From Escherichia phage vB_EcoS_PHB17, in sequence record NC_054892.1: DNA of 48,939 bases; one strand, written 5' to 3'. Below the pieces are notes generated by a model. That model saw nothing but the letters and a program-made list of their open reading frames with translations. It ran no database searches and was not told the origin of the DNA. The first letter of the stretch is position 1; each line of letters opens with the position of its first letter. Made by a program: the position numbers and the translations under genes. This document shows, piece after piece, positions 1-48,939 of this stretch.

Positions 1-142
1 GTGAAACCTGGTCTGCTTGAGTCAACTTTTCGCTCGCGTCACGGTGTCTTGTCTGCTTTTGTTCTATCGCGTTCACGTGTTAACCATCCGCAAAAAACGG
101 AAACAAAAAAATACAAATAGAATCCTATAACATACTAAAAAA

Positions 143-194
143 TAAGAGTATTTTATTTATATATATCTAAATATAGTTATTTGTTCACAGTGTT
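143..194. repeat. AT-rich element, copy A
   Basis: TAAGAGT..TTATTTATATATATCTA..TTGTTCACAGTGTT, shared with 30147-30200. Confidence 0.65.
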
Positions 195-199
195 CCATA

Positions 200-310
200 G
201 GTATATGGATACCCCCATATCATTTATGATTATGGTGGGTATCCATGGTTAATAAATGAACTGTTGCGCTCGCCAGGTTACATATACATATAATAGGGGG
301 TATATGGCGC
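200..310. repeat. cluster of direct and inverted GC-rich repeats
   Basis: GGTATATGG at 200 and 299; GGATACCCCCATA (207-219) imperfectly inverted as TATGGTGGGTATCC (231-244). Confidence 0.6.
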
Positions 311-490
311 AAACTCCGCAAATTAGGAACACGATTTGTAAAACACTGAAATGTAAGAAATTAAACGCTGAAACGCGTGCGCAAATTTAAAAAATCGAGT
401 TGTGAACAATCATAGACGATAAAAAACAGTTGACACGACATTAATCCACCAGCATAATGCAGCCGTCCCAACCAATCAGGAGGAAACACG

Positions 491-958
491 ATGCAAGAAC
501 AAACATTTAGCGACAATCTGCGTGGTGCGGCTCGCGCCTTGGCAAGTGGCGAGAAGGATAAAATCGTTATCCCATCCGGCGTAATTGAAATGGTTCTGGC
601 GGGCAAGAGCGCGGCTAAAAATCCAGCAAGCTATATCCGCACGACGATGAACCGAGTGCCGGAGGTGAAAGCTGTCGGCTCAATCAAGATCAAGAAAAGC
701 TATTGTGAGGATGAGGATAGCGATCACTACGGAAGTGACATTTACACACTTACGATTGTAAAAGGCGGTCGCAAAACGGTTTACACAAAGGCAGACGTTG
801 AGCGCATCAAGGCGCAAGCGGTAAGCAAGGCGGTTGAGCGATTCTTAACGCTATCCCCTAGCCTGGCAAACTACACACAAGAAGAATACGCCACTGTTGC
901 AAAAGTAATGGGCGAGATTAACGCGCTCGTTAAGGTTAACTTTGAGGTCGAGGAGTAA
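491..958 (+). CDS. hypothetical early protein (155 aa)
   Basis: ORF with AGGAGG about 8 nt upstream of ATG; first gene after the noncoding hub. Confidence 0.6.
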   Translation: MQEQTFSDNLRGAARALASGEKDKIVIPSGVIEMVLAGKSAAKNPASYIRTTMNRVPEVKAVGSIKIKKSYCEDEDSDHYGSDIYTLTIVKGGRKTVYTKADVERIKAQAVSKAVERFLTLSPSLANYTQEEYATVAKVMGEINALVKVNFEVEE

Positions 959-963
959 TCACA

Positions 964-1209
964 ATGCAATACATGAAAATCAAGCAAATGACAGACGACG
1001 CAATCAAAACCGCCTCCGCAGAGGGGAGGCTATTCAGGCTCGTAAGGTCGAATAAATCAATGCCCCTGAAAGTAAAGCCATTCGAATTGCATAAACCTGG
1101 ATGTAAATGCACAAGCGATGGTGGCGATTATTGGCCTGACTGCATGAATACCATCAACATTGCAAGGGCGGCGATTAAGAAAGGTAATTTATTCCTGGGG
1201 GTGAAGTAA
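964..1209 (+). CDS. hypothetical protein (81 aa)
   Basis: ORF; GAGGAG upstream; tightly packed after previous gene. Confidence 0.5.
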   Translation: MQYMKIKQMTDDAIKTASAEGRLFRLVRSNKSMPLKVKPFELHKPGCKCTSDGGDYWPDCMNTINIARAAIKKGNLFLGVK

Positions 1210-1529
1210 TGCAAAAGTTCAAAGTGGTGTTAGGCGCAATCATGGTTGTTGCTGGCGTCGTCATGCTGACTGGTTGCGACGGCGACACCAGGACGCCGGA
1301 ACATGCACGCATCAAAATGCAGGTTGAAACGGGAGCAGATCACAACCGCGTTAGCGTGCGCAAGTTGACAGAGTTTGCTGACGGCCTGGCGTACAACGAC
1401 AAGCGCGGGATTTACCTTATCACCGATAAGCAAACGGGCAAGGAATACATTGGCGTTTCTGGTGTCGGTATCACCGAAACAGGATCGCACGCTTGCGGAA
1501 AGGGTTGCACACGCCAGGATGAGCGATAG
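1209..1529 (+). CDS. putative lipoprotein (106 aa)
   Basis: N-terminal hydrophobic segment ending in lipobox LTGC followed by Asp at +2 (CDGD); start overlaps previous stop. Confidence 0.6.
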   Translation: MQKFKVVLGAIMVVAGVVMLTGCDGDTRTPEHARIKMQVETGADHNRVSVRKLTEFADGLAYNDKRGIYLITDKQTGKEYIGVSGVGITETGSHACGKGCTRQDER

Positions 1530-1545
1530 CACTTTTTGTTAAAAC
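1526..1545 (+). promoter_or_regulatory. conserved motif copy ATAGCACTTTTTGTTAAAAC
   Basis: Begins on TAG stop of lipoprotein gene; followed by hairpin GGGGTT..AACCCC containing TATAGT. Confidence 0.5.
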
Positions 1546-1600
1546 TCGATCAGGGGGTTGCGATATAGTAACCCCATCGAAACGAAACGAGGATTGCAAA

Positions 1601-1759
1601 ATGGTTACTCTGATTACCTGGGAACACGAAAACAGCCAGCCGGAAGCACGCGAGTTTGAAACGGTTGCTGCTTGCTATCACCTGGCGGCGAATGGCGGTT
1701 TTTACAAGGCGCAGATTGTTAACGAATTTGGAGTTGTTGATTATGAGTTCCACGCCTGA
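1601..1759 (+). CDS. small hypothetical protein (52 aa)
   Basis: ATG 1601 with GAGGA upstream, sits downstream of motif plus hairpin module; below ORF-track size cutoff. Confidence 0.3.
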   Translation: MVTLITWEHENSQPEAREFETVAACYHLAANGGFYKAQIVNEFGVVDYEFHA

Positions 1760-2033
1760 TTTCACCAGCTATACAGCAACGGTTGATTTTGAGGGGTTGA
1801 AATTACCCCTCCCGAACGTGTGCCGATACATAACGCGCGATGAGTTCGGCTTTATCCAGGCCTGGGCGAATAGGCCAACCAAAAACACGGAGCACGGCGG
1901 CTTTGGTGATGGAGAGTTTACGCCGATCACGTTAGGACACCAGCGCGGAGACAATCCCGTTGTTATGCGCAAATATCGCCGCAGCCGTAGTAACTGCCTT
2001 ATCTCAATTTTTGGCATCATTCCGCCACGATAG
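1743..2033 (+). CDS. hypothetical protein (96 aa)
   Basis: In-frame ATG 1743 (MSSTPDF) overlapping stop of the 52-aa ORF; longer track start 1656 lacks RBS. Confidence 0.45.
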   Translation: MSSTPDFTSYTATVDFEGLKLPLPNVCRYITRDEFGFIQAWANRPTKNTEHGGFGDGEFTPITLGHQRGDNPVVMRKYRRSRSNCLISIFGIIPPR

Positions 2034-2049
2034 CACGAATTGCTAAAAC
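2030..2049 (+). promoter_or_regulatory. conserved motif copy ATAGCACGAATTGCTAAAAC
   Basis: Overlaps TAG stop; followed by hairpin CCAGG..CCTGG and CATAAT. Confidence 0.5.
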
Positions 2050-2104
2050 AGCCAGGTGAAAGCCTGGCATAATAGCCCCAACGACAACAAACGAGGAAAG
2101 CACA

Positions 2105-2350
2105 ATGAAAAACGTAACCGTAAAACTCATCAACCACGGCGGCTATGATGGATTGAAACACCTGGAATTCCCAATCGAGGTGCAAGGAAAATTGCATGAG
2201 GCCTTGGGTTACATCGATGTGCCAATGAGTGAGCTTGAGCGTATCGGGTACGACAAAGTAAAAGGCCAGATCGCAGAGGTCAAGGATTGCGCAGAGGGTA
2301 GCGACGATTTGACATTCTTCCAGGGTAGCGAGGCGGTAGTAATCGGCTAA
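2105..2350 (+). CDS. hypothetical protein (81 aa)
   Basis: ORF with GAGGAA upstream; preceded by motif and hairpin. Confidence 0.5.
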   Translation: MKNVTVKLINHGGYDGLKHLEFPIEVQGKLHEALGYIDVPMSELERIGYDKVKGQIAEVKDCAEGSDDLTFFQGSEAVVIG

Positions 2351-2370
2351 ATAGCACGAAATGTTAAAAG
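2351..2370 (+). promoter_or_regulatory. conserved motif copy ATAGCACGAAATGTTAAAAG
   Basis: Directly after TAA stop; hairpin GGGGATT..AATCCCC containing TATAAT. Confidence 0.5.
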
Positions 2371-2426
2371 GGGATTTGCTCTGAGCGGTATAATCCCCAC
2401 ATCGAAACAACACAGAGGAACACAAA

Positions 2427-2597
2427 ATGAAATCTCGCGAATATCGTAACATCAACAATTCCCTGGTCTACTGGCTGGAGAACGGCGAGGTTTTGGTTCG
2501 ACATCCAGAAACAGGAAAAGTGATCCGTTCAGGATATAGCGCGGAGACTTTCTTTGTGATGGTTGGCAACGACACGCTGGAATTGATTGAAGAATGA
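2427..2597 (+). CDS. small hypothetical protein (56 aa)
   Basis: ATG 2427 with AGAGGAA upstream after motif and hairpin; below track cutoff. Confidence 0.35.
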   Translation: MKSREYRNINNSLVYWLENGEVLVRHPETGKVIRSGYSAETFFVMVGNDTLELIEE

Positions 2598-2676
2598 GCG
2601 CATTAACTTTCTTTCATGCCGTCACCTGGGCGGCGTTGTTCACCTGGCTATTCACTCACTACTAACGGAGAGATTC

Positions 2677-3216
2677 ATGATTGAGTTTGAAATTTGGGGC
2701 AAGACCTACCGCCTACCAACGCCAAACAAAGGGGTTGTGATTGTCGATTATGATGGCACGCTTTCGGACGGTGCGCACCGCTTGCACCTGTTGCCAACAA
2801 AGGATCTGCATTTAACTGAATCCTGGAGTGAGTTTAATCGCGCGGCAATTCACGACACGCCAATCAGAGATACGATAGCCGTAATCAATGGCCTTTGGGT
2901 ATCCGGTTTCGCCGTTATCGTGCTAACAGGCCGTAGCGATGAGGTAGAGCGTGAATCTCACGAATGGCTAAACTACCACGGCGTCAAATACGATTACATG
3001 ATCATGCGCCGCGCCACTGATAACCGCAAAGACACGATCATCAAAGAGGAGGTGTTACGCGCGATAGGGCTTGAAAACATCGTGTGCGCCTTTGACGATT
3101 CGCCGTCTGTTATCCCATTTATGCGCAGCCTGGGGATCACAACATACGCGGTCACGCATTACGAGCAACCGCATTCACATTTGCAGAGTCACGGCGTGGA
3201 GGAGTTGCCAGAATGA
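2677..3216 (+). CDS. HAD-superfamily phosphatase / nucleotidase-like protein (179 aa)
   Basis: HAD motif I VIVDYDGTL, motif II VLTGR, C-terminal DDS; GGAG RBS before ATG 2677. Confidence 0.65.
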   Translation: MIEFEIWGKTYRLPTPNKGVVIVDYDGTLSDGAHRLHLLPTKDLHLTESWSEFNRAAIHDTPIRDTIAVINGLWVSGFAVIVLTGRSDEVERESHEWLNYHGVKYDYMIMRRATDNRKDTIIKEEVLRAIGLENIVCAFDDSPSVIPFMRSLGITTYAVTHYEQPHSHLQSHGVEELPE

Positions 3217-8897: not shown

Positions 8898-8923
8898 TAA
8901 CCCCGCGTTTGCGGGGTTTTTTA
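8898..8923 (+). terminator. rho-independent terminator
   Basis: CCCCGC-GTTT-GCGGGG stem followed by TTTTTT. Confidence 0.8.
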
Positions 8924-8965
8924 TTGCCTGTTATAATCGGACTCCAACAAAGGAGGGCAATTATC

Positions 8966-9487
8966 ATGGCTAAAAACGTCGAACCTGCTGTAAAGGCATT
9001 GAATTTTAAAGAGCTATACAATAAGAAATATGGCGACATTGCGCGATTGAGCAACGCGCACACACTTACGCCGGAGCAAGTTTTTGATCTGGCGGTTCGC
9101 TATTTTGAATGGGCGGAAAAAAATCACATTGAAGCGGCGGAAACTGCATCCTTTCAGGGCGATGTATACGAATCAAAAATCCATAAGCCGCGAATCTTTA
9201 CCCTTAACGGCTTGCGCCTGTTTTGCGGATTCTCTGAGGCCGTTACTCTGAAATGGCGCAGGGAGCCAGGATTCAGCGAAGTGATGGAATTCATCGACAC
9301 GGTAATCAATGAGCAGAAATTCCAGCTTGCGGCGAATAACCTTGTAAACGCCTCGTTTATCGCCAAAGATATTGGCGTTGATAAGCCAGCAAGCATTAAC
9401 GTTGAAGCAAACGCAAACGCCAGCGTTGACGCAGTGACGGCGGAAGAAGTAAAAGACGCGGTGCGGGATATCTTAGGAGAAATCTGA
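8966..9487 (+). CDS. putative terminase small subunit (173 aa)
   Basis: ATG 8966 after AAGGAGG; sits immediately upstream of terminase large subunit; assigned by position only. Confidence 0.5.
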   Translation: MAKNVEPAVKALNFKELYNKKYGDIARLSNAHTLTPEQVFDLAVRYFEWAEKNHIEAAETASFQGDVYESKIHKPRIFTLNGLRLFCGFSEAVTLKWRREPGFSEVMEFIDTVINEQKFQLAANNLVNASFIAKDIGVDKPASINVEANANASVDAVTAEEVKDAVRDILGEI

Positions 9488-9489
9488 TC

Positions 9490-11058
9490 ATGCTTATTTG
9501 GGAAGATTTGACAGCGGCGCAGAAACGCGCCATTAAAGAAATGAGCGAGCTTTCATTTGAAAAGATGATCCGCATATGGTTTCAACTCCTGCAAGGCCAG
9601 AAGTTTTTAAGCAACTGGCATTTCAGCTACCTATGCAGTGAGGTAGAGAAAATCATTTCCGGCGAATCGCAAAACGTGATCTTTAACATCACGCCAGGTT
9701 CGGGTAAAACGGAAATCTTTTCGATCCATATGTCGCCGTATGCGTCAATCAAAAGCAAAAAGGTGCGCAACCTTAATCTTTCGTTTAGTGATGGCCTGGT
9801 GCAACAGAACAGCAACAGGATCAAGGAGATTGTTGGATCTCCAGAGTGGCAAGAGTTATGGCCTGGCAAGCTGGCGAAAGCCAGCGCCAAAGATCTGATT
9901 GTGCAGGACGAAAACGGGAAAGTTAAGTTGCAGGTGAATTCCCGTTCAATTGGTGGACAGGTTACGGGCTTGCGTGGCGGCTATATGGATGATGGTTTTA
10001 CGGGGATGTTGGTACTTGACGATCCAGACAAACCAGATGATATGTTTTCGAAGGTGCGCCGTGAAGCAATGCAAATGCGCCTAAAAAACACCGTGCGATC
10101 ACGTCGAATGAAAGACACAACGCCAATCGTAATGGTTCAGCAGCGGCTACACGTCAATGATTCTACTTACTTCATGACAAGCGGCGGCATGGGCGGCATT
10201 CAGTTTAAAGTTGTGAGCATTCCGGCGCTAGTTACGAAAGAATACCGCGAAACGCTTCCTGAGTGGTTAATTCCTGAATTTGATCGTGATGTGCTGACAA
10301 GCGAGCCTGTTTATATTGACGGCGTGGCGCATTACTCTTTTTGGCCTGCAAAGGAGAGCGCAAAAGACCTTTTAGCGCTACGCGAGGCCGACCCATACAC
10401 TTTTGCATCACAGTATCAGCAGCATCCTATAGCGTTAGGCGGCAACGTGTTTAAAGTGGATTGGTTCCAGTATTACGGCGACGGCGAGAAATGCACGCTA
10501 CCAAAACCGGAACGCTTTGAGTACACATTTATTACGGCGGATACAGCGCAAAAAGTAGGCGAGCTAAACGACTACACTGTTTTCTGTTATTGGGGCATGT
10601 ACAAAAACCGCGTTTACTTCATTGATGGCGTGCGCGGCAAATGGGAAGCGCCAGACCTTGAAACAAACTTTGTGGCTTTCGTTAATCAGTGCTGGAAGCG
10701 CAACAAAGAATGCGGCTCCTTGCGTAGAATCCACGTCGAGGATAAAGCGAGCGGAACGGGCTTGATTCAGGGGGCAAAGAAAAAGATCCCTATTGATATA
10801 AATCCCGTTCAGCGCAACACGGACAAAGTAACACGCGCGATGGATGCAGCACCAGTTATGAGGGCGGGGCGCGTTGCATTGCCTGAAAACCATCCAATGC
10901 TTGCGGAGCTACTCGCAGAGGTGGCTGCGTTCACGTTCGATGATTCTCATCCAAACGACGATATCGTTGATAACATCGTTGATGCGGTCAACGTGGAAAT
11001 GAACCTCGCAGACGATCCGGTTGCACGCATGAAAAAACTGGCTGGATTGAAGAAATAG
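9490..11058 (+). CDS. terminase large subunit (522 aa)
   Basis: ATPase P-loop TPGSGKTE in N-terminal half, acidic nuclease-type C-terminal half; first of packaging/head genes. Confidence 0.85.
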   Translation: MLIWEDLTAAQKRAIKEMSELSFEKMIRIWFQLLQGQKFLSNWHFSYLCSEVEKIISGESQNVIFNITPGSGKTEIFSIHMSPYASIKSKKVRNLNLSFSDGLVQQNSNRIKEIVGSPEWQELWPGKLAKASAKDLIVQDENGKVKLQVNSRSIGGQVTGLRGGYMDDGFTGMLVLDDPDKPDDMFSKVRREAMQMRLKNTVRSRRMKDTTPIVMVQQRLHVNDSTYFMTSGGMGGIQFKVVSIPALVTKEYRETLPEWLIPEFDRDVLTSEPVYIDGVAHYSFWPAKESAKDLLALREADPYTFASQYQQHPIALGGNVFKVDWFQYYGDGEKCTLPKPERFEYTFITADTAQKVGELNDYTVFCYWGMYKNRVYFIDGVRGKWEAPDLETNFVAFVNQCWKRNKECGSLRRIHVEDKASGTGLIQGAKKKIPIDINPVQRNTDKVTRAMDAAPVMRAGRVALPENHPMLAELLAEVAAFTFDDSHPNDDIVDNIVDAVNVEMNLADDPVARMKKLAGLKK

Positions 11059-29955: not shown

Positions 29956-30013
29956 GTTATCGCCTCCTATCTGTTAATCAATGCCGTAACTATAACACCA
30001 AACGGCGCGGCGG

Positions 30014-30031
30014 TTTAGCAAAAAGTGCTAT
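30014..30031 (-). promoter_or_regulatory. conserved motif copy upstream of minus-strand operon
   Basis: Reverse complement ATAGCACTTTTTGCTAAA; TATAGT about 22 nt downstream on minus strand, then AGGAGG and ATG. Confidence 0.5.
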
Positions 30032-30146
30032 TTGTTTTCTTTTGTTCCAGCGTGTTCATGAATTTGCGGAGGCGTAAATTTAGCTCAAAAAATCGCCATC
30101 CAGCGAGCAATAAGCATACAGTAAATATTACTATACACATGAAAAT

Positions 30147-30200
30147 TAAGAGTTTATTTATTTATATATATCTATTTGTTTTCTTTTGTTCACAATGTTT
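30147..30200. repeat. AT-rich element, copy B
   Basis: TAAGAGTTTATTTATTTATATATATCTATTTG..TTGTTCACAATGTT; roughly 80 percent identical to copy A by eye. Confidence 0.65.
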
Positions 30201-30402
30201 CATATTCTTTTGGTTGGTTGCGGTGATTTCTATCATTGTCATGGTCACTTTACTGGTATGTGTGTCTATCTATAGGATGCGGCGTAAATCAGTGAACAAG
30301 GTAAACACAAAAACAACAAAGCCAAAATCAAGCACTTAGATTGCATTTTTGTTGTCTTCAACCATTAAAAACGCAAGGGAACAAAAAATAACAAGATATC
30401 TA

Positions 30403-30430
30403 TTGACTAAATACACAAATTGGCTAGAAT
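30403..30430 (+). promoter_or_regulatory. sigma70-like promoter TTGACT-N16-TAGAAT
   Basis: Hexamers with 16-nt spacer about 30 nt upstream of exonuclease start. Confidence 0.5.
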
Positions 30431-30458
30431 TCTGTTAAAACAACACGGAGAGCATGAA

Positions 30459-31517: not shown

Positions 31518-31536
31518 ACAGCACAAATAGCTAAAC
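31518..31536 (+). promoter_or_regulatory. conserved motif variant ACAGCACAAATAGCTAAAC
   Basis: Directly after TAA stop of exonuclease; hairpin ACGGGG..CCCCGT containing TGATATAAT. Confidence 0.45.
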
Positions 31537-31591
31537 AAATGAAATACGGGGTGATATAATTCATCCCGTAAGTTAACCAGAGGAATCTAAT

Positions 31592-36006: not shown

Positions 36007-36450
36007 TTAGCTATTTGTGCTGTTTTCAAAGTCGGACGCACGAACAACGCGGAGCATTTCGCGCTTTTCACACTTGAGTGTAAGCGGTTTTCCGTTGCTA
36101 TCAAATTTCAGATCTGGGCGGCAGAATGAAGCGCGATAACCCTTGCAGCCTTGCCGCTTGTAATCTTGATGCACCTTTTGAGCGCCTTGCGCTGAAATCA
36201 TTCCGCGTTTCTTCCATTGCTGGATCGTCTGAAACGACACTTTAAGGCGGCGTGCCATTTCTGATTGAGTGCCATAATATTCTAACAGGATGTCAAGCCG
36301 CGCACGCAATCCGGCCTTTACTTCATCTTTCAGCACGTAGTAACCTGTTTTGCGGCGGCGTGGCTTTTTGTCTTTTCCGCGTCGAGTTCCGTTATTACCA
36401 TTGATTGTGCGTTTATCTACTTCACCAGTTGAAACAGCGATTCTTTTCAT
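36007..36450 (-). CDS. helix-turn-helix DNA-binding protein (147 aa)
   Basis: HTH segment QSEMARRLKVSFQTIQQWKKRG; basic N-terminal region; start at MKRIAVS. Confidence 0.6.
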   Translation of the reverse strand: MKRIAVSTGEVDKRTINGNNGTRRGKDKKPRRRKTGYYVLKDEVKAGLRARLDILLEYYGTQSEMARRLKVSFQTIQQWKKRGMISAQGAQKVHQDYKRQGCKGYRASFCRPDLKFDSNGKPLTLKCEKREMLRVVRASDFENSTNS

Positions 36451-36463
36451 AGTAAATTCCCCA

Positions 36464-36483
36464 ATAGCACTTTTTGTTAAAAT
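36464..36483 (+). promoter_or_regulatory. conserved motif copy ATAGCACTTTTTGTTAAAAT
   Basis: In divergent region between HTH gene and helicase; TGTAGTATAGC downstream. Confidence 0.5.
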
Positions 36484-36539
36484 CACTTATGTTTAGGCTT
36501 GTAGTATAGCGTCAAACGAAACAACGTTAAAGGTTTAAA

Positions 36540-38540
36540 ATGGCAATACCAAACATTAAAAAACAATTATCAGCGTTAGGCGATGAGGTTATAAAGGCTA
36601 TTCAAGATCGCTTTACCGTTGGCGAAATTAGCCCTTACCCGTATCAGTGCGTTGCGTATTCCGAGATCGCAAAGCGCATGAAAAATTACGAGCATCCTTT
36701 CTTTGTCAAGGCGTCCGTATCTGCTGGTAAAACAATCATCTTTGCGATGGTTGCGGCGCAGTGTAAAAAAATGGGCTTGAAAATGATGGTTTTGGCTCGC
36801 CAGGCTGAAATTGTGGATCAGGATTCAGAGGAGATCACAAATTTTGGTGTTCCAAACTCCATCTATTGCGCCGGACTCAACACGAAAAGCGCGTATTTTC
36901 CAATTGTCGTGGGTTCGGAGGGAACCGTTGCAAACGGCTTGTTTAAAGCGTTAGGTGACTATGTTCCGCATGTAATCGGTATTGATGAATGTCACCAGGT
37001 GGATTGGGAAGATTTAGCCGATTCGATAGAGAACGAGGAAACTTTCGAGCAAATGACCACAAAGAAAGGCGTTCGCGTTCTGAATGGTGACGGCTCCCAG
37101 GTTTTCAACAAAGACGGCGAACCAATGGAGGGAACCGGACGCAGCCAATACACAATAATCATTCGTGAAATGCAGCGCCGTTGCAAAGAGGCTTACGGGC
37201 ATGAATTGCGCATATTCGGAATGACTGGATCGGAATTTCGCGGCGTCGTTCCAATCCTGGTTGAAGATAAAAAACAAAAAGGTTTCTGGCGTGAGCAGGT
37301 AACGAACATTGATACAAATTACCTGATCGAGTTCGGTTCGGTTGTTCCCACTAACTTTGGCAACGTTGATGGTTTGGGTTATGACCTTTCAGAGTTCACG
37401 GCGTCCAGTGAGGATGGCGTTGCAGACTTTGATCAGAAAACTTTGCGCAAGATGGAAGAGAAGATCCACAATGACGCAACAATGACGCAAAAAATAATGT
37501 CACGCGTGCATGAGATCTGCAAAGACCGCAACGGCGTTTTAGTAACTTGTGCAGGTGAGCGCCATTGCAAAGAAGCGGCGGCGGCTTTGCCACCTGGTAC
37601 ACCGTACCGCATCATCACTGGTAAGACTGGCGAGAAACAGCGTAAAGAGTGGTTGCGCGAGGCATACGATGGAAAAGTAAAATACATCTTCCAGGTTATG
37701 GCCTTAACAACTGGCGTTAACGTTCCGTTTTGGGATACGTCTGTAATCCTTCGCAAAATCGGATCGCTTACCTTGCTGATTCAGCTTTTAGGGCGCGGTA
37801 TGCGACTGTTGAAGAAATGGCACATTGAACAAGGTTTTGTTAAAAACGATCACCTTGTTTTAGATTTTGCTGGCTGCATGGATGAGTTAGGGCAACTTTA
37901 CTTCGATCCGATACTTGAGCAAGCGCAATTCCAGCGCCGCCACGACAACGGAAAAGATCCTAAATTCTGCCCGATTTGCGGAACGGAAAATTCATTCTAT
38001 GCACGCCGTTGCATAAGGGTTGATGAAAACGGAAATCGTTGTGAGCACTTTTGGAAATTCAGAGTTTGTGAGGATCAGATTGACCCAAGAACAAAGAAAG
38101 TGATTGTTAAAGGTTGCGGAACCAAAAACGACGTTGTAGCGCGAATTTGCCGCCATTGTGACGTATCACTAATTGATCCAAACGAGAAATTGAGCGGAAA
38201 GCACTACACAAAAAACGACTGGTGCAACGTGAAATCGTTCCGTGTTGATATGACGAAAAACCAGAAAGGGATCGTATTCTGCTATGAGCTTGAGGCGCAC
38301 GGAGAAACGTTCAAAGCATACGAGCGCTTTTTCCCTGAGTCTGACGCACAGATCTGTAAAACGCTTTGGCGTCAAACAGCGCTTAAACACATTCCAGATC
38401 GCAGAATCGCGGGGATGGTTGCCAGCTATCGCAATGCGCGTAAAATCATGAGCATGGCACATCACATTTTACCGCCTGTTAAGGTTACGCACCGCAAAAA
38501 CGCAAAAGGCGAGGATATAATTTATCATCGGGAGTTCTAA
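36540..38540 (+). CDS. SF2 ATP-dependent helicase (666 aa)
   Basis: Walker A SVSAGKT, DECH box, C-terminal Cys clusters. Confidence 0.8.
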   Translation: MAIPNIKKQLSALGDEVIKAIQDRFTVGEISPYPYQCVAYSEIAKRMKNYEHPFFVKASVSAGKTIIFAMVAAQCKKMGLKMMVLARQAEIVDQDSEEITNFGVPNSIYCAGLNTKSAYFPIVVGSEGTVANGLFKALGDYVPHVIGIDECHQVDWEDLADSIENEETFEQMTTKKGVRVLNGDGSQVFNKDGEPMEGTGRSQYTIIIREMQRRCKEAYGHELRIFGMTGSEFRGVVPILVEDKKQKGFWREQVTNIDTNYLIEFGSVVPTNFGNVDGLGYDLSEFTASSEDGVADFDQKTLRKMEEKIHNDATMTQKIMSRVHEICKDRNGVLVTCAGERHCKEAAAALPPGTPYRIITGKTGEKQRKEWLREAYDGKVKYIFQVMALTTGVNVPFWDTSVILRKIGSLTLLIQLLGRGMRLLKKWHIEQGFVKNDHLVLDFAGCMDELGQLYFDPILEQAQFQRRHDNGKDPKFCPICGTENSFYARRCIRVDENGNRCEHFWKFRVCEDQIDPRTKKVIVKGCGTKNDVVARICRHCDVSLIDPNEKLSGKHYTKNDWCNVKSFRVDMTKNQKGIVFCYELEAHGETFKAYERFFPESDAQICKTLWRQTALKHIPDRRIAGMVASYRNARKIMSMAHHILPPVKVTHRKNAKGEDIIYHREF

Positions 38541-48716: not shown

Positions 48717-48773
48717 TTCCGTTTTCCTCAATTCTTTTCGATGAAGTAACTATACCAAATCCGATCCGATCCG

Positions 48774-48792
48774 TTTTAGCAAAAAGTGCTAT
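48774..48792 (-). promoter_or_regulatory. conserved motif copy, minus strand
   Basis: Upstream of first gene of minus early operon (ATG 48716). Confidence 0.5.
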
Positions 48793-48827
48793 TGATGGAT
48801 TGAGTGCGTTTTAACCACTTTCCAGCA

Positions 48828-48892
48828 CTGTTGCAGAATCTGAAATGATAGCCGCTTATTGTTGCACATCATGCAAGATAGTGATTGTTGCA
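48828..48892. repeat. three spaced copies of (A/C)TGTTGCA
   Basis: Copies at 48828-48835, 48858-48866, 48884-48892, spaced 26-30 bp; a TGTTGCG at 262-268 lies across the window junction. Confidence 0.55.
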
Positions 48893-48939
48893 GTTAGTGA
48901 AACAATCCTAGGTGATTATTACTGATTGTGAGGGGAATC

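Follow-up and report, generated by a model that had tools for sequence, protein, structure and literature searches.

The genome of Escherichia phage vB_EcoS_PHB17 (NC_054892.1), a stretch of 48,939 nucleotides called here the window, begins and ends inside one large noncoding region, the hub, which runs across the junction between the last and the first letters. Judged from its sequence, the hub is, on balance, probably the control region that T1-like (Drexlerviridae) phages have in common at their left end, and a composite of three functional layers. Divergent promoters appear to occupy its edges. An insert (48797-48939 plus 1-46) is supported as the packaging-initiation (pac) region by its homology with the genome ends of the phages T1, TLS and SU57. 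The third layer is an AT-rich module, a candidate replication origin or early-promoter control element, which is found a second time in the middle of the genome, in a paralogous region at 29956-30452 (the paralog).

The window is a complete T1-like siphophage genome of ~49 kb belonging to the Drexlerviridae, as indicated by the layout of its open reading frames (ORFs) and by similarity searches, in which its terminase-portal block was 84% identical to that of the Changchunvirus phages PaulSarasin and W011D. The hub comprises positions 48717-48939 and 1-490 (713 bp), bounded by the start codons of the last minus-strand gene (ATG 48716) and the first plus-strand gene (ATG 491); the genome is thus opened inside the hub. 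A preliminary description of this DNA had placed the noncoding region at 48793-48939 plus 1-490. That stretch is gene-free, but the actual span is larger and starts at 48717. The two halves of the hub are contiguous across the window junction in relatives, and the junction is therefore merely the point of opening of a genome that was assembled as a circle or is terminally redundant. A gene-free region of ~650-720 bp lies between the same divergent operons in every relative examined, and the same layout is found in 12 relatives. Both synteny and homology to the left ends of T1 and TLS, which extends over a 21-nt repeat, the AT core and the rightward promoter, place the hub in the Drexlerviridae left-end region. 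It was already known that the T1-type left-end untranslated region (UTR) harbours pac, and the hub appears to belong to this class on the same grounds. No Rfam family was found in a scan of positions 1-700 (E<=1), no coding signal was detected in the hub, and ARAGORN found no tRNA in the whole window.

The features of the hub, in order from the leftward to the rightward promoter, and the paralog are the following.

48749..48796, minus strand: leftward '21-nt direct repeat' promoter, with ATAGCACTTTTTGCTAAAA (48792 to 48774), a 19-nt spacer and the -10-like hexamer TATAGT (48754 to 48749)
48797..48939, plus strand: left part of the insert, candidate pac segment, with iterons, a palindrome, an inverted repeat, TGATT copies and a G-rich box
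48829-48845, 48860-48876 and 48886-48902, plus strand: three 17-nt iterons, TGTTGCAGAATCTGAAA, TGTTGCACATCATGCAA and TGTTGCAGTTAGTGAAA
48862-48876: palindrome TTGCA-N5-TGCAA, within the insert
48883-48907: inverted repeat GATTGTTGCA/TGAAACAATC, within the insert
48882, 48913 and 48923: TGATT copies, within the insert
48927-48939: conserved G-rich box TGTGAGGGGAATC, running over the window junction into GTGAAACCTGG
1..46, plus strand: right part of the insert, with the conserved GTGAAACCTGG box and the CTGGTCTGCTT repeat
47..85, plus strand: left array of phased short repeats, TTGTCT (49-54), TTGTTC (59-64), CGTTCAC (70-76) and GTGTTAAC (77-84)
92..180, no strand: AT-rich core, with the most conserved block TATAACATAC-TAAAAAATAAGAGTATTTTATTTATATATATCTA
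181..198, plus strand: right array TTGTTCACAGTGTTCCAT, with a pair of TGTTC units at a spacing of 9 bp
199..310, no strand: hub-specific variable segment of the GGTAT motif family, with GGTATATGG (200-208 and 299-307), an inverted repeat (205-219/231-246) and TGTTGCGCTCGCC (262-274)
326..409, minus strand: inverted copies of the array motif, CGTGTTCC (333 to 326), CAGTGTTT (348 to 341) and TTGTTCACA (409 to 401)
416..490, plus strand: rightward immediate-early promoter region, with an A-tract (ATAAAAAACAG), -35 TTGACA (430-435), -10 CATAAT (453-458), ribosome-binding site (RBS) AGGAGG (478-483) and ATG 491
29956..30452, no strand: paralog, the cor-exoVIII intergenic region (gene flanks named from relatives)

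The two edges of the hub would fire outward, a sigma-70 promoter rightward into small early genes and a 21-nt-repeat promoter leftward, as expected from the preliminary description, in which two operons diverged from this region. The rightward site, TTGACA-17-CATAAT (430-458), agrees with the sigma-70 consensus at 11 of 12 positions, is the best match in the genome and is conserved in relatives; the gene starting at ATG 491 is the DUF7174 gene. Among intergenic sigma-70 matches with a -35 hexamer of the TTGAC type, the best two are at the right edges of the hub and the paralog, one at each. On the left, the element at 48792-48774 fits the TLS consensus aaATAGCACnnnTTGnTAAAA, and its TATAGT is followed by a conserved CATCGAAA leader, an RBS and ATG 48716. 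This leftward element is invariant in 12 relatives, and both edges are conserved in 12 relatives from four Tempevirinae genera as well as in T1. The 21-nt direct repeat has been reported from TLS, T1 and Rtp, and its role was left as an open question in the TLS paper (PMC11447400). About 20 such elements (18-20, depending on the pattern used) are present in the window, all oriented along transcription. The repeat of the TLS paper recurs at ~19 sites in the window besides the left edge of the hub, and this edge is all that it accounts for in the hub.

The insert of ~190 bp is situated between the leftward promoter and the left array and, in the alignment, is absent from the paralog. Among the grounds for its assignment to pac are that the ends of three relatives fall in the homologous segment and that the small terminase subunit (TerS) is of the P22 gp3 family. 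The T1 record (NC_005833) carries an annotated terminal repeat from position 1 (repeat_region 1..2800), and this position 1, between G and TTGCATGGTGTGCAAC, falls within the iteron cluster: alignment puts it at window 48887, matching of the palindromes at 48861. Position 1 of TLS is a pac site that was restriction-mapped via a sub-molar pac fragment; it falls within the homologous TGATT-repeat cluster, ~80 nt left of the GTGAAAAC box. Position 1 of SU57 is a PhageTerm end at an abrupt step in read coverage, in what its authors described as the UTR corresponding to the T1 pac region. This end is ~70 nt right of the last TTGTTGCG unit of SU57 and left of its AT core. The start of the window and the end of the YSP2 record fall in the same ~110-bp span as the ends of the relatives, and the SU57 and YSP2 ends are at roughly the relative position of window 1..46. 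Several palindromes of the TTGCA-N5-TGCAA type adjoin the coverage-defined end in the SU57 hub.

TerS (8909-9487) and the large terminase subunit, TerL (9490-11058), are encoded ~9 kb downstream of the hub. TerS matches PF16677 GP3_package and phrog_606, and the terminase is of the headful (pac) type, with a TerL 84% identical at the DNA level to that of T1-like phages. T1, TLS and SU57 have been reported to be headful packagers.

The insert contains repeats of its own. TGTTGCA starts at 48829, 48860 and 48886, where its density in the genome predicts 0.23 copies for the hub. The preliminary description had read these units as (A/C)TGTTGCA; the three copies are present, but the preceding base is C, T and T rather than A or C. 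The longer pattern TGTTGCA-N5-TGMAA, which defines the 17-nt iterons, occurs three times in 48.9 kb, always in the hub (0.01 expected; 0 of 100 shuffles), and the iterons are partially palindromic and 26-31 bp apart. TGATT and GATTG are the only 5-mers present in the inserts of all 10 non-redundant relatives, with 31 copies compared to 12.8 expected (z 5.9). Units of the TTGCA type recur in the inserts of the Changchunvirus-like clade, T1 and SU57, and the insert of the Tlsvirus relatives has three GATCAC together with TGATT repeats. A further unit of the preliminary description, TGTTGCG at 262, is present but lacks the second half of the 17-nt unit and probably does not belong to the iteron family. 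Nor do the repeats, taken as one cluster in the preliminary description, form one family: TGTTGCG at 262, GGTATATGG and the inverted repeat at 207-244 belong to other motif groups. Genome-wide, TGTTGCA is strongly biased in strand, with 13 plus-strand and 3 minus-strand copies; the ten on the plus strand that are not in the hub are scattered within genes. A comparison of the insert with the P22 pac sequence was not persuasive, as only AAGAT is shared.

These observations suggest a model for the start of packaging. A TerS of the P22 gp3 type would assemble on the three 17-bp iterons and the TGATT repeats, and TerL would make the first cut within or just right of the repeat cluster. Headful packaging would then proceed rightward, so that roughly the first 3 kb would constitute the terminal redundancy. 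The pac site that had been suggested for the hub as a whole is thus supported for its left part only (~48797-48939 plus 1-46), which is absent from the paralog and to which the ends of the relatives correspond, but not for the rest of the hub.

Several points weigh against this assignment. T1 position 1 marks the start of a record, and its precision as the pac cut is uncertain. The final assignment of pac in TLS leaned partly on likeness to P22 pac, and the SU57 end was partly chosen by comparison with T1. Other authors orient their genomes 'according to T1', which makes record ends less than fully independent as evidence. The window itself opens at the GTG of a spurious ORF, and its position 1 may be a matter of annotation convenience. 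More generally, every function assigned here is read from sequence. It is also conceivable, although improbable, that the AT-rich element with its ATATA repeats is the pac recognition site, and that the TGTTGCA/TGATT cluster is a chance location of the cut or is unrelated to it. Five ATATA repeats in T1 and its close relatives were earlier pointed out in a search for pac, as recounted in the MSK paper; the idea is attributed to the earlier T1/Rtp literature. No other part of the hub is as widely conserved as the AT core, which is 100-200 bp away from the mapped ends. In SPP1 and P1 the pac sites include bent AT-rich DNA, a parallel in favor of the ATATA repeats. However, a near-identical AT core with the same arrays is present at 30109-30204 and is likewise placed in relatives. 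If such a core were sufficient, a second packaging series would start in mid-genome, in conflict with reports of a single sub-molar pac fragment in TLS and of a single pac site in T1; the duplication thus argues against the ATATA repeats as the pac signal. Furthermore, Rtp and MSK were reported to lack the ATATA motif.

The three TGTTGCA-N5-TGMAA units could instead form a three-part operator, comparable to lambda OL/OR, to which a dimeric Cro-like repressor would bind, rather than being sites for terminase. Three partially palindromic 17-bp units at this spacing would suit such an operator, and the phage encodes a Cro/YdaS-like helix-turn-helix (HTH) protein. This, too, seems rather unlikely. 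On neither strand is there a promoter-like site within the units or next to them, and the units are 37-110 bp upstream of the repeat element of the leftward promoter. In addition, their segment is absent from the paralogous promoter region, and the mapped ends of T1, TLS and SU57 coincide with the cluster. In lambda-type control regions the operators overlap the promoters, but here the iterons and the arrays all lie outside the -35 and -10 hexamers. The earlier suggestion of a multi-operator control region therefore retains the divergent promoters at both hub edges, but the operator reading of the iterons is weakened. The pac assignment of the insert is preferred over both of these alternatives.

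The rest of the hub has a counterpart elsewhere in the genome. The paralog contains, in the order of the hub, a leftward 21-nt-repeat promoter, a left array, an AT core, a right array, an inverted copy of the array motif, an A-tract and a sigma-70 promoter. The latter, TTGACT-16-TAGAAT (30403-30430), would drive the exoVIII/Erf/SSB operon. The left arrays align, with TTTGTTTTCTTTTGTTCCAGCGTGTTCAT (30033-30062) in the paralog opposite CTTGTCTGCTTTTGTTCTATCGCGTTCAC in the hub, as do the right arrays, TTGTTCACAATGTTTCAT (30186-30203) opposite TTGTTCACAGTGTTCCAT. The AT core of the hub is 79% identical to 30131-30204 over 76 nt. The two regions differ by one large block found only in the hub (48797 to ~46) and by the variable segment (199-325). 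The common part, the module, is ~330 bp long and extends from 47 to ~410 in the hub and from 30033 to 30400 in the paralog. No third copy was found in the genome.

The module is also duplicated in other phages. It is found twice per genome in T1, in the Tempevirinae and in the Braunvirinae phage SU57 (MT511058). Conservation of the second module extends to 175 phage records, most of which leave it unannotated, and 465 phage records have sequence similar to the AT core. When 14 hub and paralog modules of seven genomes are aligned jointly, the alignment holds throughout. The arrays are fixed in position but their sequence depends on the lineage: TGTTC in the window, four copies of CTGTTAT in Hanrivervirus, GTGTTAATC or GTGTAACAG in T1 and GATATAC in SU57. 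Across the seven genomes, some of which are related to each other, the identity between hub and paralog arrays is 0.58 within a genome and 0.49 between genomes (exhaustive permutation, p = 0.005). The likeness of the two copies within a genome is seen for the left array (p = 0.009) and for the right array (p = 0.005). The two AT cores of SU57 are 86% identical over 71 nt, and neither is detectably similar to the cores of the window. SU57 thus has the same duplication of hub and paralog with entirely different core and array sequences (TATCAACCTTTTACTTTATTATTATT..., GATATAC repeats). These comparisons indicate that the two modules evolve in concert. Such concerted evolution points to one of two causes, a sequence-specific binding factor common to both modules or recurrent gene conversion, each of which implies that both copies are retained. 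We infer that the module binds one sequence-specific factor at both loci.

The AT-rich element (~92-190) is the most AT-rich stretch of the genome, with 11.7% GC in 60 bp, ~5 standard deviations below the mean. Its presence had been noted in the preliminary description, and it ranks first genome-wide both in AT content and in low duplex stability. By GC content and nearest-neighbour free energy, the hub core is the least stable duplex in the genome and the paralog core (30109-30175) is the second. The core is flanked by arrays on both sides. The GTT cores of the left array are spaced by 10, 10 and 8 bp. Homologues of the inverted array copies are present in T1, PaulSarasin, PMBT35, TLS and Hanrivervirus, and at ~30293-30300 in the paralog. 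TTGTTCACA, which is found in both orientations (181 and 401), agrees with the DnaA box at 8 of 9 positions. A DnaA box was considered and rejected as a general explanation, since in other genera these sites are taken by TGTTAT, GTGTTAATC or GATATAC. The IHF consensus near the AT core is matched with one mismatch at best in some relatives and poorly in the window. GATC is absent from 48797-490 (~630 bp), where ~3.6 sites would be expected, in a genome that is GATC-rich (278 sites). The only two GATC sites of the hub, 48763 and 48768, are in the spacer of the leftward promoter.

What the module does can be stated with less assurance. The view that it is a replication origin is plausible and is held here tentatively. 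The two most meltable sites of the genome, each with phased direct repeats on both sides (TGTT-core arrays with a spacing of 8-11 bp and a sequence that varies with the lineage) and with promoters diverging around it, would suit an origin with an exceptionally unstable AT-rich DNA-unwinding element. In the preferred version, the module would be a transcription-activated unwinding element. Negative supercoiling generated by the two diverging promoters would open the AT core, and the arrays would hold it open for the initiation of replication. It is almost as probable that the module serves the two immediate-early promoters as a common enhancer or shut-off site, and the two roles are not mutually exclusive. 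The minimum of the cumulative GC skew, at 221, would also point to an origin, but it is confounded by the change of transcription direction, a point that weighs against the origin reading. Another is that no initiator was recognised among the phage proteins (no Rep, O or DnaD-like family). The proteins that were recognised are an SF2-type helicase, a primase with a zinc ribbon and the Cro/YdaS-like HTH protein (36007-36450), which is the only small HTH protein. The hub does not resemble an oriC-like site recognised by DnaA and IHF. It is depleted of GATC, its two DnaA-like boxes, each with 8 of 9 positions, are not conserved in other genera, and the IHF matches are weak and unconserved. Finally, the concerted evolution of the modules could be explained by gene conversion in recombination-proficient phages, with no shared factor. 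The authors of the TLS and SU57 studies both sought an origin and found none, and the searchable literature yielded no description of a T1-like origin, no replication data and no transcriptome.

The module might, alternatively, be purely transcriptional, with no role in replication: an upstream enhancer of curved AT-rich DNA bound by Fis, IHF or H-NS, an operator array, or both. A regulator such as the Cro-like HTH protein would then switch both immediate-early sigma-70 promoters and their leftward partners. This is a possibility of some substance, although a doubtful one. The module is located exactly at the two loci with near-consensus sigma-70 promoters, the only two of the TTGAC type. Both -35 hexamers have inverted array copies and A-tracts immediately upstream, curvature is predicted from T-tracts with a phasing of 10-11 bp, the phage encodes a Cro-like HTH protein, and concerted evolution would fit a co-evolving regulator. 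However, the AT core is upstream of the sigma-70 promoters at a distance, 250-280 bp, that is large for an element of the UP or Fis type, and the arrays overlap no promoter hexamers. An extreme and conserved melting-prone core of 90 bp with direct arrays is, moreover, more typical of origins.

It is very unlikely that the repeats of the hub are functionless, chance or mutational by-products of low-complexity AT-rich DNA, an explanation that was already disfavoured. Many 8-nt matches within the hub are indeed at chance level, and the palindrome at 207-244 and GGTATATGG lack positional conservation in relatives. The iteron pattern, however, is found three times where 0.01 is expected, the module is conserved across subfamilies, duplicated and evolving in concert, and the hairpin of the variable segment has a z-score of about -4.

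The variable segment (199-310) contains the remaining repeats of the preliminary description, and both were borne out. The two copies of GGTATATGG, at 200 and 299, are the only ones in the genome. The inverted repeat at 207-244 has a perfect 10-nt core (205-214/237-246), or 13 matches in 14 positions when extended; folded as a DNA hairpin, it has an energy of -13.6 kcal/mol (z = -4.0), which none of 200 shuffles matched. The GGTATATGG pair, the inverted repeat (205-246) and the AT-rich element are all beyond chance. The inverted repeat and the two GGTATATGG copies form a loose GGTAT(A/C) motif family, and GGTAT is moderately enriched at this position, with 20 copies compared to 8.7 expected and a presence in 8 of 11 relatives. 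Because the segment is hub-specific, it could be a right-hand accessory of pac.

An ORF of 39 codons at 1-120 (plus strand), which starts with GTG at window position 1, was considered as a gene and rejected. Substitutions are spread evenly across its codon positions (16/14/13, 18/13/15 and 19/14/18), and in T1 and Hanrivervirus the reading frame is interrupted. The ORF is unlikely to be a gene. A Shine-Dalgarno-like GAGGGG box lies upstream, and the peptide VKPG...RSRH is shared with close relatives, which is a superficial similarity. The GTG may explain why the record opens at window position 1.

The 21-nt repeat has the form ATAGCAC-N3-TTG-N-TAAAA. Its sites include 1526, 2030, 3638, 4608, 5604, 6910, 38959 and 40126 on the plus strand and 48439, 47461 and 45410 on the minus strand. 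A -10-like hexamer, TATAGT or CATAAT, follows ~16-19 nt downstream, and TTGNTA is thus too distant to be a normal -35. Many of the sites have a GC-rich stem-loop around the -10-like hexamer (e.g. GGGGTT..TATAGT..AACCCC and GGAGCA..TATAGT..TGCTCC), and a conserved CATCGAAAC leader follows the hexamer. These repeats may represent a class of activator-dependent promoters or an element acting at the RNA level. The TGTT/AACA arrays were considered as a generic upstream element of the 21-nt-repeat promoters and rejected, since other such promoters in the window have no arrays. A third short divergent intergenic region, at 36450-36540, separates the Cro/YdaS-like HTH gene (minus strand) from the SF2 helicase gene (plus strand). 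It has a 21-nt-repeat promoter at 36464 and, with 27% GC over the 100 bp at 36471, is one of the AT-richer places in the genome. At 31520-31565, between exoVIII and the Erf-like gene, a variant of the repeat, AACAGCACAAATAGCTAAACA, overlaps a promoter-like site, TAAACA-17-TATAAT, and a similar variant is found at 36021 on the minus strand.

The closest known systems are the left-end UTR/pac regions of T1 (NC_005833), TLS and SU57. They occupy the same position between the same divergent operons of small genes and have the same leftward 21-nt-repeat promoter, a cluster of the TTGCA/TGATT type, the AT core and the rightward promoter, and the genome ends and terminal repeat have been assigned there. 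The T1 left end is, however, only 69% identical to the hub in a forced alignment, the sequence and number of the iterons are lineage-specific, and the ends of the present genome are deduced from the sequences of its relatives. Multipartite sites for an oligomeric small terminase are exemplified by pacL/pacC/pacR of SPP1 and by the pac of P1, with its TGATCA/G hexamers. The insert would resemble them in having several short repeats over ~100-150 bp beside the first cut, with AT-rich or bent DNA adjacent. The hub site differs in being ~9 kb upstream of terS, and not in or beside it. Because GATC is absent from the insert of the window, Dam control as in P1 is unlikely here. Among origins, SPP1 oriL/oriR are a pair, and the lambda ori, the T7 primary origin and T4 oriF/oriG are activated by transcription. 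The module would be comparable to these in its short direct repeats around the most meltable DNA, its two copies and its flanking promoters. It differs from them in that no initiator gene has been identified and in that its repeats are very short (5-7 bp cores).

Overall, the region is of an ordinary kind, expected for the T1-like family, with a moderately interesting and testable insight into its anatomy. No description was found in the searchable literature of the distinction between a pac-specific insert and a module duplicated at cor-exoVIII, of the concerted evolution of the two modules or of the 17-nt iterons, all of which appear to be new. T1-like phages are common contaminants of laboratories and fermentations and are candidates for phage therapy. 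The packaging start defines the true genome ends and the terminal redundancy, and shows which sequence to keep or transplant in engineering, in the control of transduction and in synthetic rebooting. The split between insert and module gives a concrete way to separate pac from non-pac elements. Two precise loci are nominated as the origin(s) or the early-transcription switch of the family, and related open questions are listed by the TLS authors. It is possible, if doubtful, that the modules at 47-410 and 30033-30400 are the long-sought dual replication origins of T1-like phages, in which divergent host RNA polymerase promoters would open the core and a factor encoded by the phage would read the lineage-specific arrays. 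If this were true, one origin would be fused to pac, and every chromosome packaged in a first headful would carry a copy of it at each end.

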